NCBI GenBank assembly: GCA_019695335.1
Contig: JAIBAF010000011.1
Span: 13,277 to 77,276 of the forward strand
DNA: 64,000 bases
Direction of reading: 5' to 3'
Origin: a bacterium
GTDB taxonomy: Bacteria; CLD3; SB21
This document shows, in pieces, positions 1 through 28,371 of the stretch. A program made the translations under genes and the position numbers. The notes beneath the pieces are model-generated. The model did no database searches, was not told the DNA's origin, and saw only the letters and a program-made list of their open reading frames with translations. The first letter of the stretch is position 1. Every line of letters starts with the position of its first letter.

Positions 1-2
1 TT

Positions 3-1484
3 ATGTCAGCTGAGCCGATCACTCACGCAATTATATTGGCTTACAATGCAACCTCTGACGGCACGCAATTCGATGCCCGATATGGCGGTGAAACCATTTT
101 GAATCGCGCGCTGGTTGCTATGTCCAAGTCTGGAATTAAAAGCGTGTCAATACTTTGTAATAGCTCTGACAAAAATCGAATCGAAAAACAAATCGGATCG
201 GTTCGTCACCGGTTAACTCTTGACTACTCTATCTTTGAATCCAATAATGGATTATCTCATATCATTGCAGATATTGCAGGAAAGTGGAATCAGCGATTTC
301 TATTGTTTAATGCTGATATTTTAGTGCATCCGACATTTCTCAATCAAACCGTTCACATGCAAAGCGATTGCGGCTTGGTGTGTTACAAAGATGTTCGTAT
401 TAACAATCACAAAATCCATTTTACTGAAACATTTACTGAAAAATTCAAAGTCGTTTTTGAGCATCCCGAAAAATTGCGTCGATTCGATTTTACTAAATTA
501 AAGTCGCTTGAATTCACTGAACCGATAATGAGTCATACCGTTACGGATGAACTGAACTTAAACTATGCAAGCGATGGTGTTTTTAGTACTGATGTTCTGA
601 TAGTATCGCCTGCTTCGTTAAAATCTGCTGGACAATATTCTGAGTGGGACGAATTGGTAAAGAAGCTGCATTCTATGAAGATACTTCAATTACTATTCGT
701 TAAAGACGCTTGGTGGTTGCGAGTTTATCCTGGTATCAGCGACCATCATATCAAGAATTTTTTCTGGAAGATTGCTTTTAAAGATGTGAGCGGTGAATTT
801 TCAAAAATTGTCAATTCAAAATTTTCTAAGCCGCTTTCATTTTTTTTCGCACGTATGGGCGTTGCTCCCAACACCTTGAGCGCTGCGCAAATGATTTTGT
901 ATGTTTTAGCGTCACTGTTGTTGTTTATCAATGCTCACTGGGCAATCATCGCTTTTGCAATTATCTGGCAGTTTTCAGCAGGTGTGTTGGATCGGTGTGA
1001 CGGTGAAACGGCACGGATCCGGAATTACGAATCAGAAGGCGGCGCTAAATTCGACGTTTTGGTTGATGACTTGCGTTTCGGAATTCCATTCATCGTCCTG
1101 ACATTCGAATGTTATATTGAATCCGGCTTTAATTTTATTTTTCCAGTAACGGCATTTTTATGTATTGGCGGATTTTTGGCAATCGCTTTTAAAGAGTTAG
1201 CCAACATGCGGAAAGCCGGCTATCAAAGTCGTCAATTTCTGGCGGCTGACATTTTCAGGATGATGGGACAGGAAACAGCTTCGACTAAACTTGCTCAAAA
1301 AATTCGTCCCTTTTTCAAAGGTGATATCCGGACATTTTACATCTCCATCATTGCGCTTTTCGGTGTTAAAACACTTGTTTTTTGGGTGTTGGGAGGTAAT
1401 ATTATATTTATGGGAGTCATGGGGCTTGCCTCAATAATTCAGATTAAAAAATTAGTTCATTTTAAACTTACGCATAAAGGTTAG
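3..1484 (+). CDS. Fusion protein: N-terminal nucleotidyltransferase-like domain plus C-terminal CDP-alcohol phosphatidyltransferase domain (IPCT/DIPPS-like architecture). The 5' end may lie upstream of the window.
   Basis: N-terminus (AIILAYNATSDG...GETILNRALVAM) has an NTP-transferase-like fold with a degenerate Gly loop. The C-terminal hydrophobic half carries a perfect CDP-OH-P motif, DRCDGETARIRNYESEGGAKFDVLVDD (DG-x2-AR-x8-G-x3-D-x3-D). Confidence 0.6.
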   Translation: MSAEPITHAIILAYNATSDGTQFDARYGGETILNRALVAMSKSGIKSVSILCNSSDKNRIEKQIGSVRHRLTLDYSIFESNNGLSHIIADIAGKWNQRFLLFNADILVHPTFLNQTVHMQSDCGLVCYKDVRINNHKIHFTETFTEKFKVVFEHPEKLRRFDFTKLKSLEFTEPIMSHTVTDELNLNYASDGVFSTDVLIVSPASLKSAGQYSEWDELVKKLHSMKILQLLFVKDAWWLRVYPGISDHHIKNFFWKIAFKDVSGEFSKIVNSKFSKPLSFFFARMGVAPNTLSAAQMILYVLASLLLFINAHWAIIAFAIIWQFSAGVLDRCDGETARIRNYESEGGAKFDVLVDDLRFGIPFIVLTFECYIESGFNFIFPVTAFLCIGGFLAIAFKELANMRKAGYQSRQFLAADIFRMMGQETASTKLAQKIRPFFKGDIRTFYISIIALFGVKTLVFWVLGGNIIFMGVMGLASIIQIKKLVHFKLTHKG

Positions 1485-1491
1485 CGGCGTC

Positions 1492-2178
1492 ATGGAAAAG
1501 ACAAAAGACAAAGAACGAGTCAACGATATCCTTCTCGGACCGCTGGAACGTCCGGCATTGTTGTGGCTGTCAGAACGTATGCCGGCATGGGTCACTCCGG
1601 ATGTATTGACGGTTATCGGCATCATGGCTACATTAATTATTACCGGAAGTTACTATTTGTCCAATTTTGAAAAAAATTTTTTATGGCTGGCTAATTTTGG
1701 TTTTATACTCAATTGGTTTGGCGATTCATTAGACGGCAGCGTTGCGCGTTTCCGGCATATTGAACGTCCGAAATACGGCTATTTCGTCGATCACGCGGTA
1801 GATGCTTTTAGTTCAACAGCTATTTGCATTGGGTTGGGAATCTCTCCGTATGTGGGTTTTACGTACGGCCTCCTAGCATTGATCGGATATTTGTTGATGT
1901 CCATTTACGTTTACTTATCGACCAACGTTACCGGAGTTTTTAAAATTTCTTACGGAAAAATCGGCCCAACAGAAATCAGAGTTCTGTATATGAGCGTGAA
2001 CGCAGTATTTTATTTTGTCAACAATTTCAGCGTCACCATCGGATCATTTACCATTATGTTTTTTGACCTGATCGCACTGGTTGTTGCCATTGCATTGTTC
2101 TTTTATTTTGCCTTTTTCACAATTAAAACCATTTCCGAACTGGCGATAATCGATCCTCCTGGCGTTAAAAAATCGTAG
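1492..2178 (+). CDS. CDP-alcohol phosphatidyltransferase family membrane protein
   Basis: Motif GDSLDGSVARFRHIERPKYGYFVDHAVD (D-G-x2-A-R-x9-G-x3-D-x3-D). Multiple TM helices. The start is 8 nt after the previous gene, suggesting an operon. Confidence 0.7.
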   Translation: MEKTKDKERVNDILLGPLERPALLWLSERMPAWVTPDVLTVIGIMATLIITGSYYLSNFEKNFLWLANFGFILNWFGDSLDGSVARFRHIERPKYGYFVDHAVDAFSSTAICIGLGISPYVGFTYGLLALIGYLLMSIYVYLSTNVTGVFKISYGKIGPTEIRVLYMSVNAVFYFVNNFSVTIGSFTIMFFDLIALVVAIALFFYFAFFTIKTISELAIIDPPGVKKS

Positions 2179-2203
2179 TTATTAATGAAAGGCGTGATGT
2201 ATT

Positions 2204-2923
2204 ATGTCTATTGTATTTGTCAACATCCTTATGGCAATTATTTTTGCGCTCATCCCGAATTATGAGCCAATACCAGAAAATGATGTTATTTTGATCGAAG
2301 ACTTTTCAAAAGGAACTACAGGGCAATTTCCACAGGGCTGGGGCTGGGTCGAAGGCCTTAAAGTAAAAAAAATATCCGAAGCGGCAGCGGGTCAAGTACC
2401 TTATGTCATCGCAGAGGAAAATGGAAATAAATTTCTGCATGCAGATGATACCGGACAGGCCATCACTATTGTCAGCGAAAAAAAATGGAATGTCAAAAAA
2501 TATCCCTGTCTTAGTTGGCGGTGGCGTATACGGGAATTTCCAAAGGGCGCTAATGAAAAATTAAAAGGCAAAGGCGACAGCGCAGCGGGCTTATATATTA
2601 CTTATTATGTTTCTTTTTTCGGAATTCCAAAAAGCATTAAATATATTTGGAGCAATGAAGTGCCATTATGCGATACGTTTCGCCGGGAAGGAACGGGTAA
2701 AGCCACTATGACCGTAGTTGAAAGCGGAATGGGAAAAAAAGATGTATGGGTAACCGAGACCATCAATATTTATGAACATTACAAAAAAGTTTTTGGAGAA
2801 TATCCGCCGGACGAAGTCGTAGGTATTGCTATCCGCACTGACGCCGATGGAACCGGTTCACGCGCTATTGCCGACTATGACGATATTAAAGTCATGAAAT
2901 CCTGTAATGGACAATGCGAATAA
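2204..2923 (+). CDS. Conserved hypothetical protein with N-terminal membrane anchor. The DUF3047-like assignment is tentative.
   Basis: N-terminal TM or signal segment followed by a soluble domain with Trp-rich motifs (GWGWVEG, SWRWRIREFP). Third gene of the operon, followed by a strong terminator. Confidence 0.5.
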   Translation: MSIVFVNILMAIIFALIPNYEPIPENDVILIEDFSKGTTGQFPQGWGWVEGLKVKKISEAAAGQVPYVIAEENGNKFLHADDTGQAITIVSEKKWNVKKYPCLSWRWRIREFPKGANEKLKGKGDSAAGLYITYYVSFFGIPKSIKYIWSNEVPLCDTFRREGTGKATMTVVESGMGKKDVWVTETINIYEHYKKVFGEYPPDEVVGIAIRTDADGTGSRAIADYDDIKVMKSCNGQCE

Positions 2924-2949
2924 AACTTAGAATTCAATAACACTCTAAT

Positions 2950-2988
2950 AAAAAAACCCGTTTCGAAAAATCGAAACGGGTTTTTTTA
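2950..2988. terminator. Bidirectional rho-independent terminator between convergent genes
   Basis: A-run, then CCCGTTTCGA aaaa TCGAAACGGG, then T7-run. Confidence 0.65.
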
Positions 2989-3006
2989 CCTAACCTAAAC
3001 CAAGGA

Positions 3007-4032
3007 TCAGAACTTAATACCCACCGAAAAGCGATGAGTTGCATCGAGTTGTCCCACGTCCATGTAACCATAATCGAAAGTGACACCTAAATCATCATTA
3101 AATTTATAATCCAACCCACCGCCAAAAGTCAAACCAGCCGTTGCGGCTTTGCTCGTGCGATAATCGCGATTACGTTTTAGGGTTGACGTATAGCCAACAC
3201 GTGCAAAAAACATGTTTTGAAAACCGTATTCGGCACCGAAATTAGTGCGGTTAGCCTGAAAACTATTTATATTTTGTTCCAAAATACCAGTAATAGAATT
3301 TTGTTCGTTACGATATAATTCCATACTAGCGCCAAAATTGACAGCCGCAGGTAACTCAAACGGCTCAGAACCAAACTTTAGAAAGGATTGCTGGCCTGAA
3401 ATAGGATCCGTTGTATTGCGCACTAATCCATCACCATTATATATTGATTGAGGGCCAATATTGGTTGCAGCAAAGCCTAATTTAAGCCCTCGATAACCAG
3501 TATTGTAGGTGAAACCAAAATCAAACGCAAAAGCCGATGCTGAAACTTGGTCAATGGCTGAATTAAGAAACTTCACCGTCAAACCGCCGCTTACACGATC
3601 CGTAATTTGCTTTGAATAAGTAAATCCAAGTGCTAAATCATATGGTGTGTAATTTCCCAAACCTCCGTTCGGATTGGTTTCACTTGTTTTTTCAATTGAC
3701 CCATAGCTTAAATAATTAAAACTCAAACCGAACACACCTGTTTCTCCCATAGGAAAACTGACTGCAGCGTAGTTCGATGTAATACCGGCAAAATGATTCA
3801 AATATGAAAAAGTAAAAGTTGCCCGGTCTGCACTCGATACATTAGCCGGATTCCAATAAATAGCGCTTGCACCGCTGCTATTGGTAAGCCCGGTTGTTCC
3901 TAGTGCGGTCTCACGAGCACCCAATGGAACGTGAAGAAACATAAAACCTGCTTCACCACGTTTTTCTTCACCAGCAAAAACTGATGCAGTCCACAACAAT
4001 AAATATGTTATGGCTATAACTCTTTGTTTCAT
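3007..4032 (-). CDS. Outer-membrane beta-barrel protein, PorV/PorQ-like (T9SS-associated, FadL-like). Family assignment is tentative.
   Basis: Signal peptide, conserved GARETALGTTG motif near the N-terminus, alternating beta-strand pattern, C-terminal ...GIKF ending in Phe. Last gene of an operon with a T9SS cargo protein. RBS AAGGAGA is present. Confidence 0.5.
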   Translation of the reverse strand: MKQRVIAITYLLLWTASVFAGEEKRGEAGFMFLHVPLGARETALGTTGLTNSSGASAIYWNPANVSSADRATFTFSYLNHFAGITSNYAAVSFPMGETGVFGLSFNYLSYGSIEKTSETNPNGGLGNYTPYDLALGFTYSKQITDRVSGGLTVKFLNSAIDQVSASAFAFDFGFTYNTGYRGLKLGFAATNIGPQSIYNGDGLVRNTTDPISGQQSFLKFGSEPFELPAAVNFGASMELYRNEQNSITGILEQNINSFQANRTNFGAEYGFQNMFFARVGYTSTLKRNRDYRTSKAATAGLTFGGGLDYKFNDDLGVTFDYGYMDVGQLDATHRFSVGIKF

Positions 4033-4102
4033 AAAATTCTCCTTAAAATTTTAACAACTTGTTGGGAGCACATTAATGCTCCCAACAATGGACAGCTGTC
4101 TT

Positions 4103-7100
4103 TTATTGAATATCCGGACCGTTAACACGAACTTCTTCTTGAATGACTGCAAATTTAACGGTTGTCTTACCGATTCCCGGAGCTTCAATTAGGGCAATGT
4201 ACATGCCGCTTGCGACAAATTTGTTACCCGCATTCTGAAGGTTCCATACCTCGACTGAAGTTTCGCCTGCTGTCGGCGTCGAACGACTATCTAACGGATT
4301 CGTATTGACTCGATTATTGTTAGAAGTTGCATTATGAACAAGGGTTCTAACTAAATCGCCAGAAACCGTAAAGATTTTGATCGTACATTGTCCGGGCAGA
4401 TTGATAAATTTTAATCGCTTATCAAAAAGTTGCGGCTGATAAGAGGAACGCGCATAATATGGATTCGGTACGACCCGAACGTCCTTGAGTTCTTTTTTCA
4501 AAGATTTCTTGTCGGTCATCGTCGGAGCAGCCACAGTAGTAAATCTAAATACATCGTCAACGGCATTTGGCCGAACGTGGAAGAATCTGAATTGATCACT
4601 ACCGGTTCCGGATGCCGACCATCCCGTATTATTTCTTCTAGCCCATGTTGCCATATACATAATTGGCATATTAGCTGTGCTTAGAGCATTGACCATCAAT
4701 TGCGGATCGGACGTAGTTGCATAGGTCTTATCGGAAATGAATAACCATTCCCTTGGACCAGTACCCGCATAGTTATCACCGCTAGAAAAGAATGGCGGCC
4801 AGTATTTGCCATTGACCAAACCATTTGTCACATTGTTTTCCAAGAAACCAATGGCCAGACGGCGTGGATTATCAGGATCTTCTACATCCCAGGCTGAAAG
4901 CGGCACTGTCTTTACAAAATCTTGATAAGCGTACGTAGCCGTAGTATTTATCATGAACGGAACAAATGCAGGCTGCGCAGGAGCTAATTGAGCATTACGC
5001 AGATACCGATGGCCATAAGATAAATTTACATCATTAACATCAAGCGGATCACCATTAGCATCCGTTGAGGCTAATTTAATTAAAATGTTTTTCAGATCTA
5101 CAGAAGGATAGCGATCGTTTTCATTTCCGAAGAAATGTACAGGACGATCCCAGCCGAGGGCTCCACTAAACGCTTCAAGCCCACCGGCATTGGCGCCACC
5201 GGCAAAAGTAAATTGACGCGTACCGGTTGGTATATCCCAGCCGACATGTTCGCCTCCAGGATTTAACCCAGGTGCCGGACCATATACGCCAATGAGCATT
5301 CCGTCGGCTATATTAAATTCTTCATCGCTATGATCGTTATCAGGAATTGCAATCCGCGTATCAAAATACCGTTCGTCGGCTGCAGTATTCGGATCATTAG
5401 TCCTGGTTTGGAAAGGCACTAACAAGTTGGTAGTAGTATCTCTTAATCTATAAGCCATCGTACCATCCGTGTATCCATCAACGGTGTGTAAGGTGAAGAA
5501 TTCAACTTTATACACATGGCCAGTAATTTTAGATGGATCGACTACTTCAACTGTGACGTTCCCATCCCCAGTGCCAGCAGAGTGTTCGACTTCGCCAAGT
5601 GATGCAGCATAGGTTTTTCCAATTAGCGGTTTCATCGGTACGATTGAAACCACATTGGCTGCAGGCGATGTCTCCAACGATATTGGATATCCGCTCGGTT
5701 TGTCAACAGTACCGCCAAACGGCGAAGTAACCTGTTCTTTGGTATCAGCTATATAAGGCTGTGCGTCATATGCCGTGACGCTATAAAAATATACCTGTCC
5801 GTTTGTGAGCCCTTCGTCGCGATAAGAATAATGTAATCCTGTATTGTTACCCACAACAAGATTCTCAGTAATGAGCGTGCCACTTGGATCAATTGTAATA
5901 TTGACCACTGTACCGAACTCGTCTACTTTATCATAATCCGCCAGCATAGCATAAGAGCCAGGAAGACCTGTTAAACTTCTGTAAACACGATAACCTTGAA
6001 AGTCATTAGTAATGTAATCAGCCGTAAAGCCACTGTCGATCTTGATACCCAGAATGTCACCGGCTTTATCGACGGAGTATTCTGAATTGTTCAACCAAGT
6101 AATGACCGCTTCACCATCCAATCCTACAACATTAATTTTCGGAATATCCGGCGGAGCAGGGGCGACAAGCCCAGCTTTAAAACCTTGCTGAATAGCATCG
6201 TCCAAAACAAACAATTGGGCTACAGCTGTTAACCTGTTATTTCCGCCAACGGACTCTTGACTGGTCCCCAGTACAGCTGCCCAAATTTCTTGTGATTCGC
6301 CGGCATCCAATTTAAAAGGTCCTACACAGTGTGCCATCCGCTGATCAGCGCCATCGGCCGCTTGCGCAACGTTCGGGTTGCTGCCTGCACCAGCAGCAGT
6401 CGGATCTCCGCGATAGGCATAATAATCGGATACCCCAACGCCTGTTTTAACCGAACCATCATTAAATTTTCCTTCTAATTGATTATAGCGCTGTTCGTCA
6501 TTGGCCGGTTGAGAACCACTCTTATACGTATTAAACGCAGTTGCTCCCAACCATATTTTGCCGGCCGGTAATGGCGTAGGTACATAAATATTTTGAGCGC
6601 CATTGTAAACCAAAGTCGATGTGTTGCTTGCAAATTTTGACGCAAGAAGTGGTGACACATCGCTGATATTAACAACTGGACCTTGCAAAAAATCAAAGCC
6701 AGTTGCCGCAGGTCTGTCTGCATCAGTACCATTATAGCAGAATCCCAAACCTCTTGATGTATCCACACCAACAATATCATTTGATGCGTTGTCAGAATTT
6801 ACATCCGGATCCATCCAGAGCCCAATATAGCCACCGGTATAATTTTCGTCTGTTTTATTAGTTAAAGTAAATTTCAAATAAACTGCATCATTCAAAGCAC
6901 CTGACGCGTACACAAACGATTCCAATGTAATTTGGATTCCTAAACCTGGGTCTTCCGTATCTTCACGTTCTTGAGTTAAATCAAGATCCAAATCATTGAA
7001 AACTGCCCACGTCTGAGCGTCGGCAATTAATGCAGGATTTCCATTATTATCACGCGGCGCATCGACCGGCCAATTCGTATAATCCGATCCAGACAAAGAG

Positions 7101-7543
7101 CGATCGATTTGATACACTTTAAGATCGGCTGAACCTGGATCTTCTGCTACCAATTGTTCAAATGGAAGTCCTGAATTAGTAATTCGGCCCGGTTGAAATT
7201 CCGAACGGAACTCTGCTTCGGAAACTGCTCTTATTGTATCTTTTTTCAATGCAGCAAACTGAAAACCACCGGCATAAACAATCGTTCGTCCTGATCCGCG
7301 AGGAAATTCTCCTCCTGGAGCTGAATTTGGCGAATCTTGCATATACCGACCGTTGTTTTCCATCACATAAATCCAGTTATTATAGCCTACACGGATAAGA
7401 TCGGAAATGTCTGGTTTTTTTAAACGAGCTTTTAATTTTTCTGAAGGGCCAAGCTTTGCAACGCCATATGACGACCACAAACTTATCGTCAAAATAACTG
7501 TAGCGGCAATAGTCAGCGCCGAAAATAAAACTTTTTTATTCAT
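4103..7543 (-). CDS. Large secreted protein (1146 aa) with a T9SS C-terminal sorting domain; function unknown
   Basis: Signal peptide. C-terminal ~80 aa (CTIKIFTVSGDLVRTL...GMYIALIEAPGIGKTTVKFAVIQ) matches the Por secretion tail. RBS GGAG is present. Confidence 0.7.
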   Translation of the reverse strand: MNKKVLFSALTIAATVILTISLWSSYGVAKLGPSEKLKARLKKPDISDLIRVGYNNWIYVMENNGRYMQDSPNSAPGGEFPRGSGRTIVYAGGFQFAALKKDTIRAVSEAEFRSEFQPGRITNSGLPFEQLVAEDPGSADLKVYQIDRSLSGSDYTNWPVDAPRDNNGNPALIADAQTWAVFNDLDLDLTQEREDTEDPGLGIQITLESFVYASGALNDAVYLKFTLTNKTDENYTGGYIGLWMDPDVNSDNASNDIVGVDTSRGLGFCYNGTDADRPAATGFDFLQGPVVNISDVSPLLASKFASNTSTLVYNGAQNIYVPTPLPAGKIWLGATAFNTYKSGSQPANDEQRYNQLEGKFNDGSVKTGVGVSDYYAYRGDPTAAGAGSNPNVAQAADGADQRMAHCVGPFKLDAGESQEIWAAVLGTSQESVGGNNRLTAVAQLFVLDDAIQQGFKAGLVAPAPPDIPKINVVGLDGEAVITWLNNSEYSVDKAGDILGIKIDSGFTADYITNDFQGYRVYRSLTGLPGSYAMLADYDKVDEFGTVVNITIDPSGTLITENLVVGNNTGLHYSYRDEGLTNGQVYFYSVTAYDAQPYIADTKEQVTSPFGGTVDKPSGYPISLETSPAANVVSIVPMKPLIGKTYAASLGEVEHSAGTGDGNVTVEVVDPSKITGHVYKVEFFTLHTVDGYTDGTMAYRLRDTTTNLLVPFQTRTNDPNTAADERYFDTRIAIPDNDHSDEEFNIADGMLIGVYGPAPGLNPGGEHVGWDIPTGTRQFTFAGGANAGGLEAFSGALGWDRPVHFFGNENDRYPSVDLKNILIKLASTDANGDPLDVNDVNLSYGHRYLRNAQLAPAQPAFVPFMINTTATYAYQDFVKTVPLSAWDVEDPDNPRRLAIGFLENNVTNGLVNGKYWPPFFSSGDNYAGTGPREWLFISDKTYATTSDPQLMVNALSTANMPIMYMATWARRNNTGWSASGTGSDQFRFFHVRPNAVDDVFRFTTVAAPTMTDKKSLKKELKDVRVVPNPYYARSSYQPQLFDKRLKFINLPGQCTIKIFTVSGDLVRTLVHNATSNNNRVNTNPLDSRSTPTAGETSVEVWNLQNAGNKFVASGMYIALIEAPGIGKTTVKFAVIQEEVRVNGPDIQ

Positions 7544-7616
7544 AAATTGACTCCATGCAATTTTTTTGTATAGGCGCCCGCATTTTAAACTAGAGCGCCT
7601 ATATCAATTCAACTTC

Positions 7617-10586: not shown

Positions 10587-10947
10587 AATGTTCCTCCTTC
10601 TGTTAAGAAAAGAAGCGTTAATTAGGTACGAAAACAAAATCGTAACAATTCTAACCATACACCTCCTTGGTAAGTTGAACGTTTTGATGTTTTAAGGGAG
10701 CAATAAACTTTCGTCGAAATACAGAACTTTAAAAAGATAAGATCGGAAAACAGATGTGTTATAAATTAGATGCACTAAGCACGTAGCAAGCTAACTAATT
10801 GAAATTCTTCTTACTATTACCTAAAAGGGTAAATATTTTCATAATTACCCATTGGGGTTATACTAAGATTTTTTGGTTAGTAAAAATTAAGGCTAGCTGT
10901 AAAGGCTTGTTGGATAAGGATTGACGAGGAGTTTAAATAAAAATAAA

Positions 10948-10985
10948 AAACTCCCGATGTTTTGCATCGGGAGTTAATAACCTAA
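10948..10985 (-). terminator. Rho-independent terminator downstream of the response-regulator gene
   Basis: CTCCCGATG ttttg CATCGGGAG with a T-run when read on the minus strand. Confidence 0.5.
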
Positions 10986-11003
10986 ACGGGTTATATGCTT
11001 GGT

Positions 11004-18472: not shown

Positions 18473-19078
18473 TCAGGATCGCCTCTTCCCAAATTGTGTT
18501 TTCAGACTCTCGATCTTCTGGGACAACGATGCCAACCCGGCCGGTGTCGCCACATTCGCATTAAATCCTGAATCCAGAATCTTTACTTCCGCCAAACTCT
18601 GTGTAAACTCTCCCAGCACAAAATGATTCGACGCTTTCAAAACCCGTAAGTCAGAAACATCCAATCCAAGACCATACGTAAACTCCCAATCCGAATCCAA
18701 CGCCAAAGCCACGCCGATCTCCGTGTTCGCCGCCGCATAACTCTTCCCCGCACTCAGCACAAACGCCCATCCGGCAAACAAATCAGCCGGTGCATTCGTT
18801 TTATCCGCCCCGTCACTGAACGCATTCGACGCGGCCGTGATATTGCTCAACTGAATGTAGCACCACCCTATTGCACTGTAGATTTCAGCCTTGTCAGGAT
18901 CCGCATCCCGAGCGTCTTCAAACGCTGCCAAGGCTTCCGTGTAATCTCCCGACGCGAACAACGTCTCGCCCTCGGTTATCAGTTTATCGTAATCCCCTTT
19001 ACCGGAACCGCCACCACACGAAAGCATTCCCAATGCTACCGTCATAGCCATTAATGTAAATATCTTCCTCGATCTCAT
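18473..19078 (-). CDS. Small TPR-like lipoprotein, copy 1
   Basis: Lipobox MLSCGGGSG and a helical TPR-like body. Essentially identical to 22497..23108. Confidence 0.6.
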   Translation of the reverse strand: MRSRKIFTLMAMTVALGMLSCGGGSGKGDYDKLITEGETLFASGDYTEALAAFEDARDADPDKAEIYSAIGWCYIQLSNITAASNAFSDGADKTNAPADLFAGWAFVLSAGKSYAAANTEIGVALALDSDWEFTYGLGLDVSDLRVLKASNHFVLGEFTQSLAEVKILDSGFNANVATPAGLASLSQKIESLKTQFGKRRS

Positions 19079-19995
19079 AATTCTACTCCTTATTTGATCA
19101 ACATCATTTTTTTCGTTTTGACAAACGCGCCGGCTTCGACGCGGTATAAATACACCCCGCTCGCCACCTGCTGGCCCAGTTCATTCTTCCCATCCCAGCT
19201 GATGCGGTAACTGCCGGCCAATTGAAATCCGCTATACAGCGTCTTCACGCGCTGACCCAATAAATTATATACCACTAACTTCAGAGTACCGTCCTGTGGA
19301 AGATCAAACGCGATCGTTGTGCTCGGGTTAAATGGATTCGGATAGTTTTGTTTCAATGTAAATTCTTTCGGCACAACATTATTACCGGTAAATGTAGCAT
19401 CGAGCCCGACCTTAAACTCTCCCAAAGTTTTGACTAAGGCCCGCACTTGATGCTTCTCCGCATACACTTGTGTACGCAAAGGCGTCCACGTATCACCGGT
19501 CTTCTGATAAATAAACACCTTCCCTTCATCTGCGAAATTACCTTGGGCATAGGTCATCGTGAGCACCAGTTCCTCGGCGTAGTCGCTCTCCGGACCGAAT
19601 TTCACAACCGTTTCACTTTCATCCGAGGCTGTCATATAGGTCTCGGTTTTAACCGAATGTTTGCTCATCTGCAAGGTCCCTTGACCGTTGGGGGTGGTGA
19701 CCGAGGCGATCTGTCCCGGCTTGGCCAGCGTGACGCCATAGGTTCTTGTCTGGATCGAATCTCTTCCACCGCTCGTAGTTGCCTTGATCCGGAAATTATA
19801 AGTTCCGCTGACTGAGAACACCGACGCACCACGGTATACTTTATTGGTACCGTTCACCTGAGCCATCGCGATCGATGTAGTATCGGTTAAACCGGTCACC
19901 CACATCTTGACCGTCGGCACGCCGCTGAACGCTGTGTCGGTCACGACCACCATGTCAAAATATTTCGACAACGCCGGATTCTGTAAAATCGACGT
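18485..19995. repeat. Direct repeat copy 1 (~1.5 kb, at least 99% identical to 22515..24025). It spans the lipoprotein gene plus the 3' ~900 nt of the BNR cargo gene.
   Basis: Pairwise comparison at a constant 4030-bp offset: identical for ~1350 bp, then five SNPs (19843, 19888, 19939-19941, 19974-19976) before the copies diverge. Confidence 0.85.
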
Positions 19996-22164
19996 ACCCA
20001 ACGGTGCGGGCGATGAATTTCCGAAATACTTCAACGACCTAGCTAATATTTTACCCATATTCGAATTTTCGAATAAGCGATAAATCTGAGCGCTTATAAA
20101 TACTCCTCGCGCGCCATGCCCTGTGTTATCAACATTTACTCCTCCGACATTAACGCTATCGGGATCATAATTAGGTCCGTAATAAAATGCTTTGTGTACG
20201 TTGCTGTTCAACAAGGTCAACTTATCACGTGTTGAGCCTCCTAACGCAATTGATGTCGTAATTCCATCACCTATTTTATTGGCGGTAAATCCTTTGAAAC
20301 TACTCGACGATGTATAGTTCCCGTTAAATCCGACTCCAAGTTTGTTTTGAAAAAGCGGATGCGATGAATGCAATTCTACTAAATCCGGTCCTGCAGCAAA
20401 TAAATGAACTCCACGGTCACATAGTAAGCTTAATGTATCGAGGAACGCCGTTGTTGTTGTTATTGCTGATGATGCAGACCATATAATAACTCGTCTTTTT
20501 GTTTTTTCAATGGCCTCGACAGGCAAACTTCGTCCCATAGTCACTAAATCCCAAAGATATGTGGTATAACCAGAATCTAATAAATGGCTTTGCATAAAAG
20601 TACCATAGAAAGCGATATCAACCATTACAAAAACGTCCGCCCGATCAATATTAAATTCATAATTAGAATTCAAAGATGGTTGTGCAATGGACTGCCTTAC
20701 ATAAGGCGCTTCGGAAATCACTACAATTGAATCATAAAAATTGAGTGATGAAAGATTTGTAAAAGTATTCCCGGATAGCGTATCCGCTGGAAATAGAGTA
20801 CCATTGCCATATCGACCGTACAATAAAACTGTAGAATTGACGTCATCCTGATAGACGTTGACCACGCTTACGCCAATGGAACCCATCGTTCCATTTAGTG
20901 ATAATTGGAAATTAACGTCAGTTGTACCACCTGCATTGACGTTGACATTTCCGATAACCTGATTAACACCAGCAGATTGAGCTTTAAGAGAATAAGTGCC
21001 GGGTGATAAATACATGGTGTACTTTCCGTCAGTATTATTGACGATACAACTGTCCGAACCTCCGACGACTACTACCGACGCATGCCCAACCGGCAAACCT
21101 CCGGAAGTCGTTGTAATCGTACCGGATATTTTGCCATAGCCGGAAGGATTGGTATTGAGTTTATATAAATTGGTGCCAAGCGCATCCTGATTGAGTGCAT
21201 AGACATCATGACTCGTAGCTGCTTTAATCATCCAGATGGCAGGATACGTAAATAGGTTTCCAAGTTGCTGCCAACTCTTTCCTTTATCAGCGCTTCTGTA
21301 AATACCTACTTCGAGGGACGTTCGGGAACCAAATACACCGATAAATAAATCCCCATTGACCGGATCCTGATCCAAACCCCACATGAAAATTCCATACAAT
21401 CCCATATCATTCCATGTCACGCCGCCGTCAGTACTTCGAAAGAATGAATAAGCAGCATCCAGTTGAATAGCCGCGTACACCATATTTGGCGTCGACTTAT
21501 CCCAAACGATTTTCGGGCATTCAGAGAAATAAGGATTCCCTCCTTTGACCAATGTCCAAGTCAAACCGTAATCTGTCGACCTGGCAATCTTAGTATCACC
21601 GGCACCTATGACGATTACGTTGGGATGAAAAGGATCAGCTGCAATGGTACAAACGTTACCATAAGGAACAACCGAACGCACGTGCCACGTACGGCCCGTA
21701 TCCGCGCTCAGCCAAAATTCACTCGTGTAAAAATCGACAAAATACATCGTGTCGGGATGAACAATATTATAGTCAAATGATTCACCGTCAGTCGAGCCTT
21801 CTTCTTTAACTTGTTCCCAATCAAATCCTCCATTTGTACTACGAAGAATACCATTATTTCCTACCATAACGATAATGGAAGTATCCAACGGACTCACGCG
21901 AATAGTACGAATGCCCGGACCTTGCGAAATGGATCCCCGTGTACTCCAGGTCGAACCCGCATCATAACTCACTTTGAATATTTTCTCCACGTTGTCGTGA
22001 ATGTACACGACATTATTATTAAGTGGACTCAACACAAATGCATAACCGTCGTGAACAGTCGGATACGTTTTCGTCCACGTCAGGTTTGTCTGTGAGTGTG
22101 CTGAAGTAGCAATGACTAGCATTTCTACAAAAAAAGTCCAAAACACCGTACGTAAAAAATTCAT
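19090..22164 (-). CDS. T9SS-sorted surface protein, paralog A: N-terminal BNR/Asp-box beta-propeller, CarboxypepD_reg-like domain, central domain of unknown function, and Por secretion tail
   Basis: Signal peptide. Six S-x-D-x-G-x-T/S-W Asp-box motifs (SYDAGSTWS, STNGGFDWE, SADTGRTWH, STDYGLTWT, STDGGVTWN, SADKGKSWQ). C-terminal KQNYPNPFNPSTTIAFDLP...VYLYRVEAG...KKMMLIK matches the T9SS CTD. Confidence 0.7.
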   Translation of the reverse strand: MNFLRTVFWTFFVEMLVIATSAHSQTNLTWTKTYPTVHDGYAFVLSPLNNNVVYIHDNVEKIFKVSYDAGSTWSTRGSISQGPGIRTIRVSPLDTSIIVMVGNNGILRSTNGGFDWEQVKEEGSTDGESFDYNIVHPDTMYFVDFYTSEFWLSADTGRTWHVRSVVPYGNVCTIAADPFHPNVIVIGAGDTKIARSTDYGLTWTLVKGGNPYFSECPKIVWDKSTPNMVYAAIQLDAAYSFFRSTDGGVTWNDMGLYGIFMWGLDQDPVNGDLFIGVFGSRTSLEVGIYRSADKGKSWQQLGNLFTYPAIWMIKAATSHDVYALNQDALGTNLYKLNTNPSGYGKISGTITTTSGGLPVGHASVVVVGGSDSCIVNNTDGKYTMYLSPGTYSLKAQSAGVNQVIGNVNVNAGGTTDVNFQLSLNGTMGSIGVSVVNVYQDDVNSTVLLYGRYGNGTLFPADTLSGNTFTNLSSLNFYDSIVVISEAPYVRQSIAQPSLNSNYEFNIDRADVFVMVDIAFYGTFMQSHLLDSGYTTYLWDLVTMGRSLPVEAIEKTKRRVIIWSASSAITTTTAFLDTLSLLCDRGVHLFAAGPDLVELHSSHPLFQNKLGVGFNGNYTSSSSFKGFTANKIGDGITTSIALGGSTRDKLTLLNSNVHKAFYYGPNYDPDSVNVGGVNVDNTGHGARGVFISAQIYRLFENSNMGKILARSLKYFGNSSPAPLGTSILQNPALSKYFDMVVVTDTAFSGVPTVKMWVTGLTDTTSIAMAQVNGTNKVYRGASVFSVSGTYNFRIKATTSGGRDSIQTRTYGVTLAKPGQIASVTTPNGQGTLQMSKHSVKTETYMTASDESETVVKFGPESDYAEELVLTMTYAQGNFADEGKVFIYQKTGDTWTPLRTQVYAEKHQVRALVKTLGEFKVGLDATFTGNNVVPKEFTLKQNYPNPFNPSTTIAFDLPQDGTLKLVVYNLLGQRVKTLYSGFQLAGSYRISWDGKNELGQQVASGVYLYRVEAGAFVKTKKMMLIK

Positions 22165-22496: not shown

Positions 22497-23108
22497 TTAA
22501 TTCGGTAACTTGAGCTTCCCAAATTGTGTTTTCAGACTCTCGATCTTCTGGGACAACGATGCCAACCCGGCCGGTGTCGCCACATTCGCATTAAATCCTG
22601 AATCCAGAATCTTTACTTCCGCCAAACTCTGTGTAAACTCTCCCAGCACAAAATGATTCGACGCTTTCAAAACCCGTAAGTCAGAAACATCCAATCCAAG
22701 ACCATACGTAAACTCCCAATCCGAATCCAACGCCAAAGCCACGCCGATCTCCGTGTTCGCCGCCGCATAACTCTTCCCCGCACTCAGCACAAACGCCCAT
22801 CCGGCAAACAAATCAGCCGGTGCATTCGTTTTATCCGCCCCGTCACTGAACGCATTCGACGCGGCCGTGATATTGCTCAACTGAATGTAGCACCACCCTA
22901 TTGCACTGTAGATTTCAGCCTTGTCAGGATCCGCATCCCGAGCGTCTTCAAACGCTGCCAAGGCTTCCGTGTAATCTCCCGACGCGAACAACGTCTCGCC
23001 CTCGGTTATCAGTTTATCGTAATCCCCTTTACCGGAACCGCCACCACACGAAAGCATTCCCAATGCTACCGTCATAGCCATTAATGTAAATATCTTCCTC
23101 GATCTCAT
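22497..23108 (-). CDS. Small TPR-like lipoprotein, copy 2
   Basis: Identical to copy 1 except for the last few C-terminal residues. Confidence 0.6.
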   Translation of the reverse strand: MRSRKIFTLMAMTVALGMLSCGGGSGKGDYDKLITEGETLFASGDYTEALAAFEDARDADPDKAEIYSAIGWCYIQLSNITAASNAFSDGADKTNAPADLFAGWAFVLSAGKSYAAANTEIGVALALDSDWEFTYGLGLDVSDLRVLKASNHFVLGEFTQSLAEVKILDSGFNANVATPAGLASLSQKIESLKTQFGKLKLPN

Positions 23109-24025
23109 AATTCTACTCCTTATTTGATCAACATCATTTTTTTCGTTTTGACAAACGCGCCGGCTTCGACGCGGTATAAATACACCCCGCTCGCCACCTG
23201 CTGGCCCAGTTCATTCTTCCCATCCCAGCTGATGCGGTAACTGCCGGCCAATTGAAATCCGCTATACAGCGTCTTCACGCGCTGACCCAATAAATTATAT
23301 ACCACTAACTTCAGAGTACCGTCCTGTGGAAGATCAAACGCGATCGTTGTGCTCGGGTTAAATGGATTCGGATAGTTTTGTTTCAATGTAAATTCTTTCG
23401 GCACAACATTATTACCGGTAAATGTAGCATCGAGCCCGACCTTAAACTCTCCCAAAGTTTTGACTAAGGCCCGCACTTGATGCTTCTCCGCATACACTTG
23501 TGTACGCAAAGGCGTCCACGTATCACCGGTCTTCTGATAAATAAACACCTTCCCTTCATCTGCGAAATTACCTTGGGCATAGGTCATCGTGAGCACCAGT
23601 TCCTCGGCGTAGTCGCTCTCCGGACCGAATTTCACAACCGTTTCACTTTCATCCGAGGCTGTCATATAGGTCTCGGTTTTAACCGAATGTTTGCTCATCT
23701 GCAAGGTCCCTTGACCGTTGGGGGTGGTGACCGAGGCGATCTGTCCCGGCTTGGCCAGCGTGACGCCATAGGTTCTTGTCTGGATCGAATCTCTTCCACC
23801 GCTCGTAGTTGCCTTGATCCGGAAATTATAAGTTCCGCTGACTGAGAACACCGACGCACCACGATATACTTTATTGGTACCGTTCACCTGAGCCATCGCG
23901 ATCGATGTAGTATCGGTCAAACCGGTCACCCACATCTTGACCGTCGGCACGCCGCTGAGCACTGTGTCGGTCACGACCACCATGTCAAAATATTTCGACA
24001 ACGCCGGATTCTGCAGAATCGACGT
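22515..24025. repeat. Direct repeat copy 2 (partner of 18485..19995)
   Basis: Same alignment as copy 1, at a 4030-bp offset. Confidence 0.85.
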
Positions 24026-26526
24026 CGCAATATGCGGTGCGTATTGTTCGCCCAACGGAAGCGCAAATGTAGTACTGTTGGCTTCATTCGAATTGGCCGA
24101 TGTGCCGCTGGCATTCACAGCTTTGACTACATAATAATATGTCGTACTGGCTGTTAAATTCGAATCGGTTAATGTTGTTTCATTCGCTTCAACCGTATCG
24201 ATATTGGCGTAACCGCTGCCGCTCGTCAATGAACGGGAAATAATAAATCCCGTTTCATTATCAGCATTATCCGTCCAGCTCAGTTGGATCTTTGACGCCG
24301 AAATGGTTGTCGTCATTAGATTGGATGGCGCGATAGGCGCATTAAGTGAAAGTGTCCTTTTAAAGATTTTGCCTATAACAGATGACGCAACACCGGACAA
24401 ATCAAAACCCAACAACAAAGCCCAGCCGTTGCTGCCCGTATTGTCGACAAACGCTCCACCAATATTAACGGAGTCTCCAGCAACCGAACCATAATAAAAT
24501 GCTTTATGACCTGAAGCAGAAAGAAGGTTGATTTTGTCACGCGAAGTGGAACTGCTTGCCGAAAAATTAATCCCGTTCCCAATGGGGCTGCTTGTAAAAC
24601 CGTTGATGGCTGTACTATTGGTGTAATTTCCTGTAAATCCCAATTTCAATGTATTCTTAAAAAATGAATGTGCCGAATCCAATTCTACCAGATTTTGTCC
24701 GGCAACAATAATATCTATCCCCTCATTACAGAACATCGCCAAACTATCCAGGAACTCCTGAGGCATGGATGAAAGGTGCCTACGAGTCAACCACATTACT
24801 GTTTTGAGATTGGTTTTATTAATTGCGCTCAATGAAATAGAACGCCCGCGCTCATCAACGTTCCAATTAAATGACGAAAAACCCGAATCCGATAAAGGGG
24901 TTTGGTATGTTGGTGCGTACGTAGCTCCGCCAACACCAAAATTAGGATCAGGATCATTGATAATAAGAACGTCAGCGCGTTTAACATTTATCGTATAATC
25001 ATTATTAAGCGCAAGCGGTGATACAGAGGTCGTTATATAGGGAACCGTACTTGGAACAACAACAATAGAATCATAAAAATTTAGCGAAGAAAGATTGGTA
25101 AAGGCATTGCCCGAAAGCGTATCGACCGGAAATGGAGCGCCGTTACCATATCGGCCATACAATAACGCGATGTAATCCAGATCATCCTGGTAAATGTTAC
25201 TTACACTCACTCCAATAGACCCCAAAGTTCCGCTTAATGGTAATTGAAAATCGACTACCGTATTTCCTGTAGCAACAATATTCACACTTCCAATGATTTG
25301 ATTAACACCTGCCGATTGGGCTTTGAGGGAATACGTGCCGGGTGATAGATACATCGTGTATGTGCCATCAACATTATTGACGATACAGCTATCCGAACCT
25401 CCGACTACAACGATGGAAGCGTGCTCTACCGGTAATCCACCCGTAACCGTAGTGATGGTACCTGAAACTTTACCGTAACCGGAAGGATCCGTATTAAGTT
25501 TATAAAGATGAACATTACCAAATGCGTTAGGATCATCTGCATTCAAAGCATAAACGTCATGATTCGAAGCAGTTTTGATCATCCAAACATTTGGATAGCA
25601 AAAGTATTTCCAAGCTGCTGCCAGCTTTTACCTTTATCGGCGCTTCTAAAGATACCAAGATTGAATTCATGCTGTGCGCTTCCTGTTGAACCAAAAACGC
25701 CAATGAACAGATCCCCATTATCCGGATCCTGATCCAGCCCCCACATAAATATTCCATATAATCCCATATCGTTCCATGTCACACCGCCATCCGTACTTCG
25801 ATAAAACGAGAAATTGACATCTTGTTGAATAGCCGCGTATACCATATTCGGTGTGGACTTATCCCAGACAATTTTCGGACACTCCGAAAAATATTCATTA
25901 CCGGTTTTAACTAATGTCCAGGTTTCGCCATAATCGGTTGAACGGGCAATACGCGTGTCCCCTGATCCGACAACAATGACATTCGGATGAAACGGATCGG
26001 CCGCAATCGTACAGACGTTGCCATACGGTACGACCGAACGTACTTGCCACGTACGTCCTGTATCCGCACTGAGCCAAAATTCGCTTGTGTAAAAATCAAC
26101 AAAATACATCGTATCCGGATGAGCAAAATTATAATCAATCGATTCACCGTCAATCGAACCCTCCGGCTGAACATTATCCCAGTTATACCCGCCATTCGTG
26201 CTGCGAAGAATACCCGAATTACCAACCATCACGATGATGGACGTATCCAACGGACTCACGCGTATTGTACGAATACCCGGACCCGGTGTAATGGAACCGC
26301 GCTTACCCCACGTCACGCCGCCGTTATAACTTACTTTAAATGCTCCCTCTACGTTATCATGAATATAAACGACATTATTATTAACGGGGCTTATGACAAA
26401 GGCATAACCGTTATGGACAGTCGGATATGCTTGCGTCCACGTGAGGTTTGTCTGAGCTCGGGCTGATGCAACAAGCACCAGCGCGGCTACAATAAAGCAC
26501 CCAAACGTTGTTCGTAAAAAATTCAT
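23120..26526 (-). pseudogene. T9SS-sorted BNR-propeller surface protein, paralog B. Domain order is BNR propeller, CPD-reg-like, central domain, an extra FN3 domain, then the shared C-terminal module plus CTD. Split by a -1 frameshift into ORFs 25579..26526 and 23120..25582.
   Basis: The N-terminal 315-aa ORF ends ...SWQQLGNTFAIQMFG*. The -1 frame continues ...YPNVWMIKTASNHDVY, matching paralog A (...LGNLFTYPAIWMIKAATSHDVY). A one-nucleotide deletion relative to copy A is inferred near 25596-25600. Confidence 0.55.
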
Positions 26527-26538
26527 AACGTTCCTCCT

Positions 26539-28371
26539 TTATTTGATGAACAAAAGCTTTTTTGTTTGAACAGTCTTACCGGCTATCATCCTGTAAAAAT
26601 ACAGTCCGGACGCGACCGTCTGCCCTTTGGCATTTCTGCCATCCCACGTTACTGCGTATTGACCTGCGTCTTTTCTAGAATTTTCAAGCGTCCGGATCTC
26701 CTGTCCCATCGCATTATATATTTTTATCGTTACCGATTGATTATTGTCTGGAACATCGTATTTGATCCGTGTATCACCATTGAATGGGTTCGGATAATTC
26801 TGATACAAAGCATAGTTCTCCGGCTCACGTATCGATTCATCAAATTGAATCTGAAACACCGTATCAATCATCACATATTCCCGCATATCCCAACCTTTGA
26901 CATCCGCCCACGCCTTGAAAACAGCACGGTACACCAACTGGATATGAATATTCGCCTGAGAGTTCTTGCCTACCTTGAACACCATGCTGCTGGTATCTGT
27001 CTTTCCTGCCGGAATCCGGCTATCATAAATAATCTCGGTAGCAAACCAATTTGTCGTTGGCGAATCGCCGGTATCCTCATTGCGTGTAAATAACGTAAAT
27101 CCTTTTCCCGGAAGGCCGGAAAAATTACCTTCCGCAGGACTGCCCACACCGCCGTAAAACGGAATGGTGTCCCCATCGAGTTGTGTCAACATTTGACCGT
27201 TATTATCCGCTTTGACTACCAGGAACATATTTCTGAAACTCACTCCGGTCGGTAATTTGTGACCCGCGCCGACGTTGGTCACCAGCGCTTTGAGCGACAA
27301 TTGATTTTGCGTCAACGTCTTTTCCACGGCCAATCGTGCCGATCGATTCATAAATGCCGGCGTCGTCCCTTTAAAAAACTGGCTGTACACTCTGTTCGTA
27401 TCACGTACCACCGCATCCGCGGCCGCAATTCCACCGGCGAAAATCGAATCACTGTTGGGGCGCATGTGACAATCTTGGCATTGAATACCTTGGGCCGCAA
27501 ACGAACTCGCCGCCCATGAGTCGTACGTATCATCGACAATCACTCCGTAGCGGTTTGCATATTGATGGCAACCGGAACAAAACGCACTTTTTTCATAAAT
27601 CGGGTTATACGTACCGCCCATCCAGTCCGTGGTCACATCGTCAAATTGTCCATAATTAATATCACGTGCATGCGGCATAGGCCGTTTCACAAAAATCGAT
27701 CCGTTCACTCCGGTAGAATAATTCACGTCCACGCTGTCAATCTTATGGCAGAAATCGCAGAACACACCGGCCGTGTCGATGCTGTTGGAATTCCATACAT
27801 CGTTTAATTCCGTATTTCCCGGCGTACGCAGCGCAGCCGACGGTGCATGGCAATCGCCGCAATCACCGCCTTCATTCGGAAAATTCAATTTAAACCCGGG
27901 ATATACTCCCGTATTACCGTTGACGTCCGTGCCGTTGTAGATTTGTTTCAGCATCGAATTCGTGGCCGCCCGCGCATGTTTGGATTCACTCCATTGATTA
28001 AATAAACCACCGTGACAATTCCGGCAAAACGTCGGATTTTGAAAAACAAAATCAGCATTATCTTCTTCAGGCAATGGTTCCATTTTGATAGTATCGCTGG
28101 TACCGACTACGAACAACCGCCGTTTATTGAACCATCCGCGCTTACCGGCTGCAAGTGTTACAAACGAACCGATGGCTTTATCCGTAAAGAGTGTAAATTC
28201 ACCTTGAGCATTGGTCAAAACGAAATCATTGCTTCCGGGAAACCGAACACGCGCGTCCGGCACCGGCATCAAGTCTTCTGAACTCACTACGACTCCTGAT
28301 ACAGGCTGACCTGATTGTGTCAGTAACACAAAGGAACAAAAAAGAATTATTGACAATATGGCCTTAAGCAT
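26539..28371 (-). CDS. Pentaheme c-type cytochrome with an N-terminal CarboxypepD_reg-like domain and a T9SS C-terminal sorting domain
   Basis: Signal peptide. Five CxxCH motifs: CRNCH (aa 116-120), CGDCH (171-175), CDFCH (205-209), CSGCH (265-269), CQDCH (298-302). C-terminus YALYQNYPNPFNGDTRIKYDVP...GLYFYRMIAGKTVQTKKLLFIK matches the Por secretion tail. Confidence 0.8.
   Translation of the reverse strand: MLKAILSIILFCSFVLLTQSGQPVSGVVVSSEDLMPVPDARVRFPGSNDFVLTNAQGEFTLFTDKAIGSFVTLAAGKRGWFNKRRLFVVGTSDTIKMEPLPEEDNADFVFQNPTFCRNCHGGLFNQWSESKHARAATNSMLKQIYNGTDVNGNTGVYPGFKLNFPNEGGDCGDCHAPSAALRTPGNTELNDVWNSNSIDTAGVFCDFCHKIDSVDVNYSTGVNGSIFVKRPMPHARDINYGQFDDVTTDWMGGTYNPIYEKSAFCSGCHQYANRYGVIVDDTYDSWAASSFAAQGIQCQDCHMRPNSDSIFAGGIAAADAVVRDTNRVYSQFFKGTTPAFMNRSARLAVEKTLTQNQLSLKALVTNVGAGHKLPTGVSFRNMFLVVKADNNGQMLTQLDGDTIPFYGGVGSPAEGNFSGLPGKGFTLFTRNEDTGDSPTTNWFATEIIYDSRIPAGKTDTSSMVFKVGKNSQANIHIQLVYRAVFKAWADVKGWDMREYVMIDTVFQIQFDESIREPENYALYQNYPNPFNGDTRIKYDVPDNNQSVTIKIYNAMGQEIRTLENSRKDAGQYAVTWDGRNAKGQTVASGLYFYRMIAGKTVQTKKLLFIK

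Follow-up and report, generated by a model that had tools for sequence, protein, structure and literature searches.

A fusion family of IPCT/DIPPS architecture with a putative pseudo-nucleotidyltransferase domain, in an operon of several CDP-alcohol phosphotransferase paralogs and DUF3047

Three genes at the start of the window

The window analyzed here, 64,000 nt of contig JAIBAF010000011.1 (positions 13,277 to 77,276 of the forward strand; assembly GCA_019695335.1, from a bacterium of the CLD3 lineage), begins with three co-directional genes that we call g1, g2, and g3. The first encodes a fusion of a nucleotidyltransferase (NTase)-like domain and a membrane CDP-alcohol phosphotransferase (CDP-AP) domain, the second a small stand-alone CDP-AP, and the third a DUF3047 protein. 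What is new here is a family that has the architecture of IPCT/DIPPS with a putative pseudo-nucleotidyltransferase domain, inside a multi-paralog CDP-AP operon with DUF3047. The three open reading frames (ORFs), which a sequence-only reading of this DNA had proposed, are confirmed on the + strand with exactly the boundaries it gave. The features are

1..2, + strand: window edge; the operon continues upstream beyond the window
3..1484, + strand: g1, 493 aa (NCBI MBX7150841.1), putative pseudo-nucleotidyltransferase domain and CDP-AP membrane domain
39..68, + strand: g1 codons for AYNATSDGTQ (aa 13-22), at the position of the nucleotidyltransferase G-x-G-x-R loop; unconserved in the family
990..1067, + strand: g1 codons for the catalytic CDP-AP motif, D330xxD333GxxAR-x8-G347xxxD351xxxD355
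1492..2178, + strand: g2, 228 aa (MBX7150842.1), small stand-alone CDP-AP
2204..2923, + strand: g3, 239 aa (MBX7150843.1), DUF3047, N-terminal signal/anchor helix and beta jelly-roll
2949..2988, no strand assigned: intrinsic terminator hairpin, bidirectional, between g3 and a convergent PorV/PorQ-family gene

The intergenic gaps are short, 7 nt between g1 and g2 and 25 nt between g2 and g3. Each gene has many conserved homologs, which indicates that they are genuine genes; the NCBI product names for the three are generic only. The hairpin past g3 reads as an 18-bp stem with a run of As before it and a run of Ts after it, and folding makes it unusually stable (dG -23.9 kcal/mol, z -8.4; none of 200 shuffles was as stable). 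A scan for consensus promoters and terminators did no better than on shuffles, and missed this hairpin. Given how strong the hairpin is, we take the g1-g2-g3 transcription unit to stop there.

The g1 protein consists of an NTase-like fold (aa 1 to ~245) and a membrane CDP-AP domain (aa ~247-493). Its AlphaFold2 model (pLDDT 85.9) has a continuous alpha/beta domain at ~8-240, with a weaker insertion at ~160-190, then a long juxtamembrane helix (247-284), and then the membrane domain; the helix is conserved and joins both domains. When the model is compared to known structures with Foldseek, the top match is the IPCT-DIPPS of A. fulgidus, 4MND, over the full length (E 3e-12), followed by the T. 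maritima IPCT 4JD0 (TMt 0.67) and then by RmlA-type enzymes, and ~280 columns of the model align to entire nucleotidyltransferases. A profile of the family also places residues 194-260 on the C-terminal part of the 4MND IPCT domain. By all three lines (model, Foldseek, and family profile), the ~170-aa linker that had been suggested between the two domains does not exist. The proposed IPCT/DIPPS-type architecture, on the other hand, is borne out by the structure matches and by the profile matches of the membrane domain given next. An absent NTP-transferase fold had been named as grounds for giving the proposal up; the fold is there, thus that objection fails.

The membrane domain matches PF01066 (E 3e-9, 37.8 bits vs. 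a gathering threshold of 22). The catalytic motif, which had been called perfect, is complete, and all 8 of its residues (D330, D333, G334, A337, R338, G347, D351, D355) are invariant in 33 homologs. In a profile search against PDB sequences, its nearest matches are AF2299 (E 7e-14) and 4MND (E 1e-10). Judged by these residues and matches, it is a CDP-AP of the AF2299/DIPPS clade that should be catalytically intact. AF2299 (4O6M) is thus the best solved sequence match of this part of g1, and it too carries an extramembrane cytidylyltransferase-like domain (PMC4634129). AF2299 differs from g1 in being archaeal, in binding CDP-glycerol and not processing lipids (PMC4634129), in its other gene context, and in that only the membrane part aligns.

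The N-terminal domain is a different matter. The NTP-binding signature of the nucleotidyltransferase superfamily is a G-x-G-x-R loop and then a (P)K lysine. At the loop position g1 has AYNATSDGTQ (aa 13-22), correctly recognized before as a degenerate glycine loop, and no member of the family has either the loop or the PK lysine. Column counts show no invariant residue before G28, and the N-terminal consensus is 'AVLLA-x-N-T-...-YD-x-VYGGETLLNRAL'. Aligned to a canonical IPCT-like fusion (AAGNGSR...PKPL; 'AAGNGSRLQGYRNNCPKPLIKVAG'), which we found in a metagenomic locus (L088; the fetched loci are numbered with an L) and which scores 248.7 bits to the IPCT/DIPPS equivalog model NF041135, g1 lacks the loop and the 7-residue PKPL segment. 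The g1 paralogs of CLD3-type loci, described below, lack loop and PK lysine as well. Nucleotidyltransferase hidden Markov model (HMM) matches to g1 are marginal and begin at model position ~29-30. The rest of the pocket is kept in part: E30, R35, R70, and H109-P110 are invariant, and D105 and K147 nearly so. A profile built from the N-terminal domain alone finds no nucleotidyltransferase among the PDB sequences, which is why the fold assignment depends on AlphaFold2 and Foldseek. Loss of loop and lysine across the whole family makes cytidylyltransferase activity of g1 unlikely. The domain may instead be a pseudo-cytidylyltransferase that still binds something, that is, a non-catalytic docking or ligand-binding module.

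Could g1 still be a genuine bifunctional enzyme? In a pathway of the IPCT/DIPPS or BEPIS kind, g1 would make and transfer CDP-inositol or a CDP-polyol through a non-canonical site, g2 would carry out a second transfer, and the outcome would be an inositol or polyol lipid or a DIP-like solute. The architecture, the top structure match, and the partly kept pocket (D105, K147, R35, R70, H109) speak for this, as does NF041135 being the best NCBIfam model for g1, but g1 scores 52.7 bits there, where the cut-off is 580, and loop and lysine are gone from all members and paralogs. The suggested profile comparison with IPCT/DIPPS thus turns out both ways, with the right model on top and a score that does not support membership, and the bifunctionality once proposed for g1 is not supported. 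We consider such a pathway improbable, also in view of the gene context discussed below.

The second gene had been described as a stand-alone CDP-alcohol phosphatidyltransferase, correctly so. It matches PF01066 (E 3.6e-9, 37.6 bits vs. a threshold of 22), and its motif, D78xxD81GxxAR-x9-G96xxxD100xxxD104, is invariant in a family that keeps 53-64% identity across phyla; the spacing is x9 where g1 has x8. CEPT1-type enzymes, of the Kennedy type, use a soluble CDP-alcohol to attach a phospho-alcohol to a lipid. In a search of the PDB with the g2 family profile they come out nearest (CEPT1 8GYW, E 2e-12; CHPT1 9UET, 5e-11; CPT1 8ERO, 2e-6), far ahead of PI synthase (0.017) and PIP synthase (0.15), and the likeness continues past the motif (ISYGKIGPTEIRV vs. 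RFGIIDVTEVQIF). With 228 aa and ~6 helices, g2 differs from the Kennedy-type enzymes in its x9 spacing and in lacking their three or four extra C-terminal transmembrane helices, which are believed to accommodate the lipid acceptor (PMC4634129). The likeness is therefore a lead and not a membership: g2 is probably a second catalytic CDP-AP, and the solved enzymes it most resembles are those of the Kennedy type.

The third gene had been described as a membrane-anchored protein without assigned function. The anchor stands, as a single N-terminal hydrophobic helix (aa 1-19, from both the AlphaFold2 model and hydropathy), but the protein is not without a family: it is a DUF3047 protein (PF11249, E 7e-34, 117.5 bits vs. 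a threshold of 27). In the model (pLDDT 91.3) the helix is followed by a beta jelly-roll whose structure matches are generic beta-sandwiches (CBM30/11, GH12, and the N-domain of glucuronyl C5-epimerase). In the literature we searched, DUF3047 turns up in a single paper, which assigns it no function.

The operon beyond the window and its relatives

The window starts 2 nt before the ATG of g1, and what had been proposed as a three-gene operon is the 3′ part of a conserved one with eight genes or more. A Logan contig with an identical g1 (L001, 1.9 kb) has a + strand gene that stops 65 nt 5′ of g1. The C-terminus of its product, ...LWMIVTFIFHLYRYVWIRFIKPS directly before the stop, matches a ~404-aa protein of two related loci, L086 and L007. 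The first of these is the closest relative with a longer contig (identity 87% for g3, 91% for g2, and 66% for g1), and it has five co-directional genes 5′ of g1, in the order GT4, Polysacc_synt (Wzx-like) flippase, a 214-aa PgsA-like CDP-AP (62.9 bits to the pgsA model), HAD-IB phosphatase, the 404-aa protein, and then g1, g2, and DUF3047. The ~404/410-aa proteins are shortened g1 paralogs with a short NTase-like N-terminus; they keep D1xxD2GxxAR, have Asp or Glu at D3, and have lost G2 and D4. The operon thus holds four genes of the CDP-AP family, one of them with a degenerate catalytic motif. Two transferases acting in sequence had been suggested; that there are several is right, but two understates their number. 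The same module is found again in CLD3-type and other loci (L002/L006/L010, L011, L026, and L095).

Two neighbors were tried as clues to the acceptor and discarded as unspecific, both with scores far under the cut-offs: the BshA/MshA-like top matches of the GT4, and a malate-racemase-like LarA homolog in CLD3-type loci.

The g1 family is rare. Among 1.84 billion representatives there are 33 clusters at E<=1e-30, ~14 of them full length, and all sources are metagenome-assembled genomes (MAGs) or metagenomic contigs, labeled Bacteroidota/CLD3, Methylomirabilota, 'delta proteobacterium', or Binatia; the best match among GTDB representatives has 67% identity. We have taken a census of the neighbors by running family HMMs over all fetched loci. 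Orthologs of g2 (53-64% identical) adjoin g1 in 19 loci, from FCB-type MAGs, Methylomirabilota, 'delta', and Binatia. In 7 loci a second g1 paralog occupies the place of g2, and no locus has both, which points to a shared slot. Orthologs of the DUF3047 gene (63-87% identical) are found with g1 in 16 other loci, every one of FCB type; in the Methylomirabilota, delta, and Binatia loci the g2-g1 pair lacks DUF3047 and comes with glycosyltransferases, in one case also with a fatty-acid desaturase.

With such a distribution, the possibility that g1 and g2 are ordinary housekeeping synthases (PgsA, PssA, or PIP synthase) beside an unrelated DUF3047 gene is very improbable. Source annotations do say 'phosphatidylglycerophosphate synthase' or 'archaetidylinositol phosphate synthase', and there are weak PIPS and AIPS matches, but all equivalog scores are far under their cut-offs, both for g1 (pssA 22.9 vs. 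107, PRK10832 16.9 vs. 304, PIPS 33.4 vs. 170) and for g2 (AIPS 51.9 vs. 180, PIPS 30.9 vs. 170). An ordinary PssA or PgsA was the other finding that had been named as speaking against the original proposal, and these scores do not point to one. The rarity of the g1 family and the synteny of g1, g2, and DUF3047 in many loci and phyla also argue against housekeeping genes.

Several relatives carry additional genes. The CLD3-type loci have GmhA, further GT4 genes, a LarA-family protein, and an acyl-CoA-dehydratase-activase/DUF2229 pair; L004 (Methylomirabilota) has further GT2/GT4 genes, and L094 has Elm1-type transferases. The acyl-CoA-dehydratase-activase/DUF2229 pair, which we take to resemble plasmalogen or ether-lipid synthase components, is absent from L086, the closest relative of the window. 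In L002/L006/L010 (~13.4-17.9 kb each), a 1028-aa double acyl-CoA-dehydratase-activase/DUF2229 protein and a 437-aa protein with a weak DUF2229 match lie between the g1 paralog and DUF3047.

Related degenerate fusions tell us something about where nucleotide activation may take place. Distant ~440-aa fusions of Dadabacteria/Thermodesulfobacteriota have the N-terminus 'AAGTGIDGE', without the Arg or the Lys, and in both of the two annotated representatives a stand-alone canonical NTP transferase lies directly 5′; other Dadabacteria-type loci have ORFs of the same size at these positions. In Gemmatimonadaceae, locus L037 has a stand-alone NTP transferase, a degenerate NTase-like/CDP-AP fusion, LPG_synthase_TM, OEP, DUF3047, MlaC, and MMPL. 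A separate NTP transferase beside a degenerate fusion, both in L037 and in the Dadabacteria type, fits the idea that the fused N-terminal domains do not do the nucleotide activation. In the L004 locus, a stand-alone NTP transferase is found ~4.5 kb off on the opposite strand; among the 36 ORFs of at least 150 aa in the window there is none, and there is none in L086.

The Dadabacteria-type block (L030-L085, for example L044 at 7921-11599) consists of PanD, the NTP transferase (~255 aa), and the ~440-aa fusion, with a sodium-dependent transporter on the opposite strand. Of the two annotated representatives, only L044 has an OlsC-like acyl/lipid hydroxylase 3′ of the fusion. PanD as a clue to the substrate was set aside as unsupported.

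In independent lineages, DUF3047 is repeatedly tied to NTase/CDP-AP fusions and to periplasmic lipid-export modules. In four loci of several lineages it is either fused to MlaC or found beside MlaC, MMPL, and OEP genes. In L088 an MlaC::DUF3047 fusion shares an operon with the canonical IPCT-like/CDP-AP fusion, a radical-SAM/SPASM protein, and OEP; the series in L037 is the one just given; and L091 and L090 (the Calditrichaeota and Aliifodinibius loci) have OEP, DUF3047, MlaC, and MMPL together, with a Wzi gene near DUF3047 in Aliifodinibius. These arrangements resemble the MlaC/MMPL(HpnN-like)/OEP modules, and they give DUF3047 its first testable context, its linkage to NTase/CDP-AP fusions and to MlaC, MMPL, and OEP genes. 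None of these genes adjoins g3 in the window, and the link of g3 to lipid handling goes through the homology of g3 only.

Two of these loci deserve a description of their own. In L088 (ENA ERZ27262676 k141_435971, 3307-8635) the order is canonical IPCT-like/CDP-AP fusion, radical SAM/SPASM, MlaC::DUF3047, and OEP, and the motif of the fusion has DG-x2-A-H in place of A-R; the operon looks like an uncharacterized module to make and export a lipid. The L037 block lies at 2706-10726 of MAG contig CAZPXM010000011.1, its LPG_synthase_TM is an MprF-type flippase domain, and the layout reads as a complete series of activation, transfer, flipping, and export.

A possible pathway for an envelope lipid

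CDP-alcohol phosphotransferases make the headgroups of nearly all phospholipids. The reading that we prefer, and to which we give an even chance, is that the operon encodes a pathway for the headgroup of an envelope phospholipid or phosphoglycolipid, that the headgroup is an unusual one, and that the product is not a compatible solute. On the cytoplasmic side, several CDP-APs would build phosphodiester links onto a membrane lipid, the HAD-IB enzyme would strip a terminal phosphate as happens in the PGP and PIP routes, and the GT4 glycosyltransferase would act on the headgroup, which is probably glycosylated. The Wzx-like flippase would then translocate the product, and the exported DUF3047 protein would act on it or escort it in the periplasm or outer membrane. 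A compatible solute, one of the options offered by the sequence-only reading, fits poorly with the conserved neighbors: GT4, Wzx-like flippase, and a DUF3047 that is exported and occurs elsewhere with MlaC, MMPL, and OEP.

There are several points that weigh against this lipid headgroup pathway. Neither the window nor L086 shows a cytidylyltransferase, and the donor would have to be CDP-diacylglycerol or come from elsewhere; without its canonical loop g1 is unlikely to have cytidylyltransferase activity, though the loss does not prove the activity absent. Among solved structures, AF2299 and AfDIPPS come nearest to g1; each has a cytidylyltransferase-like domain, works on soluble substrates, and leaves lipids unprocessed (PMC4634129). 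The g1 step may thus yield a soluble phosphodiester. Polysaccharide pathways, too, typically have Polysacc_synt flippases and GT4 enzymes, and one DUF3047 context, in Rokubacteria, is unrelated. Finally, the genes upstream of the window are deduced from a relative whose g1 is 66% identical and from a 117-nt fragment.

The flippase and the GT4 are also where a cell-surface glycan pathway comes in. There the CDP-APs would add polyol-phosphate or phospho-alcohol to a lipid-linked oligosaccharide (teichoic-acid-like, capsule, or lipopolysaccharide decoration), the Wzx-type flippase would export it, and DUF3047 would be a periplasmic module for carbohydrate binding or processing. Besides these two genes of the operon, the sugar-related genes in relatives (GmhA and GT4 in CLD3-type loci, GT2/GT4 in L004, Elm1-type transferases in L094), the Wzi gene near DUF3047 in Aliifodinibius, and the resemblance of the DUF3047 fold to CBM and GH12 jelly-rolls are all as one would expect of a glycan. 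But DUF3047 recurs with the lipid-handling MlaC, MMPL, and LPG_synthase_TM, and relatives have lipid-modifying neighbors (fatty-acid desaturase, OlsC-like hydroxylase, and acyl-CoA-dehydratase-activase/DUF2229). To our knowledge, PF01066 enzymes have been described for the synthesis of phospholipids and solutes, not for glycan polymerization, which also counts against this alternative. We regard a glycan pathway as rather unlikely.

What does the context say about the inositol pathway in which g1 is bifunctional? A HAD phosphatase in the operon is in its favor, as are precedents in which CDP-inositol is used with NTase, CDP-AP, and HAD parts: the MIPS+IPCT+BEPIS system of Rhodothermus marinus (PMC4587543), and a cluster of NTP transferase, CDP-AP, and HAD in Bacteroides vulgatus, which is unconfirmed (PMC9246714). 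In a comparison of component types, those systems resemble ours, and they share with it the FCB bacteria as hosts and, if our reading is right, a lipid as outcome. CDP-inositol lipid routes, existing or proposed, always come with MIPS (PMC4587543, PMC9246714), and in the two cited cases MIPS is linked and the NTP transferase is intact, unlike here, where the NTase is degenerate and MIPS is found neither among the 36 window ORFs nor in the Pfam lists of related loci. The inositol pathway of the sequence-only reading is not supported by what these loci contain. The separate intact NTase that accompanies related degenerate fusions argues against a bifunctional g1, and the flippase and the export of DUF3047 count against a solute that stays in the cytoplasm.

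The comparison with the A. fulgidus IPCT/DIPPS itself (AF0263, 4MND, NF041135) is instructive. Both proteins have the N-terminal nucleotidyltransferase fold, the juxtamembrane helix, and the CDP-AP membrane domain, and they share the 'CDGE(I/V)AR' form of the motif as well as a K-x-D-x-R-x-F near the C-terminus. But g1 is without the G-x-G-x-R loop and the Lys, falls far short of the NF041135 cut-off, has no MIPS nearby, and sits in a flippase/GT4/DUF3047 operon of mesophilic-looking uncultured bacteria, with three further CDP-AP paralogs. Thus, when annotating metagenomes, it is important that such fusions not be labeled IPCT/DIPPS, nor taken as markers of di-myo-inositol phosphate or inositol lipids, as they have kept the fold and lost the signature.

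A bolder proposal, which we make only tentatively and think somewhat doubtful, is a multi-paralog CDP-AP machine that combines dead or altered scaffolds, successive phosphodiester links, and DUF3047 as a new part of a lipid route from the inner to the outer membrane. As scaffolds, the pseudo-nucleotidyltransferase domain in g1 and the ~404-aa paralog, which is without the last catalytic Asp, would either form heterodimers or provide a dock, be it for a soluble cytidylyltransferase or for a ligand. The active CDP-APs (the PgsA-like one, g1, and g2 or the g1 paralog) would lay successive links leading to a complex polyol-phosphate or glyco-phospholipid headgroup, and DUF3047 would be the periplasmic component of a lipid route that elsewhere uses MlaC, MMPL, and OEP.

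An operon of four paralogs, two of them with degenerate catalytic signatures, would suggest headgroup chemistry and an organization of enzymes beyond the textbook pathways. The operon is conserved in uncultured FCB-type bacteria, and the g1-g2 core extends to Methylomirabilota and related groups. Our literature search found no description of this g1-g2-DUF3047 system.

Other features of the window

The rest of the window is unrelated to the pathway. It contains genes for cargo of the type IX secretion system (T9SS) and for PorV/Q, TonB-dependent receptors, dnaE, guaA, and murE-type genes; dnaE is near the cluster, as it is in CLD3-type relatives.

Next to the convergent gene past the hairpin, which encodes a PorV/PorQ-family outer-membrane protein (3007..4032, - strand; NF033709, 196 bits), and directly upstream of it, there is a gene for a 1146-aa protein (4103..7543, - strand) that has no Pfam match at E<=0.001 and whose C-terminus looks by eye like a T9SS sorting signal. 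A CarboxypepD_reg TonB-dependent receptor lies beside it.

A direct repeat, 100% identical over at least 300 nt, is found at 18485-18784 and 22515-22814. It covers two genes for TPR proteins (18473..19078 and 22497..23108, both - strand), and each is paired with one of two paralogous T9SS-cargo genes (Por_Secre_tail/FlgD_ig; 19090..22164 and 23120..25582, both - strand) that are 73-76% identical in stretches. The arrangement looks like a recent tandem duplication or a gene conversion.

A 610-aa protein (26539..28371, - strand) combines multiheme cytochrome c domains (Cytochrome_C554, C7, and MtrC-like) with a type IX secretion C-terminal sorting domain, which suggests a surface-exposed cytochrome exported by the T9SS.

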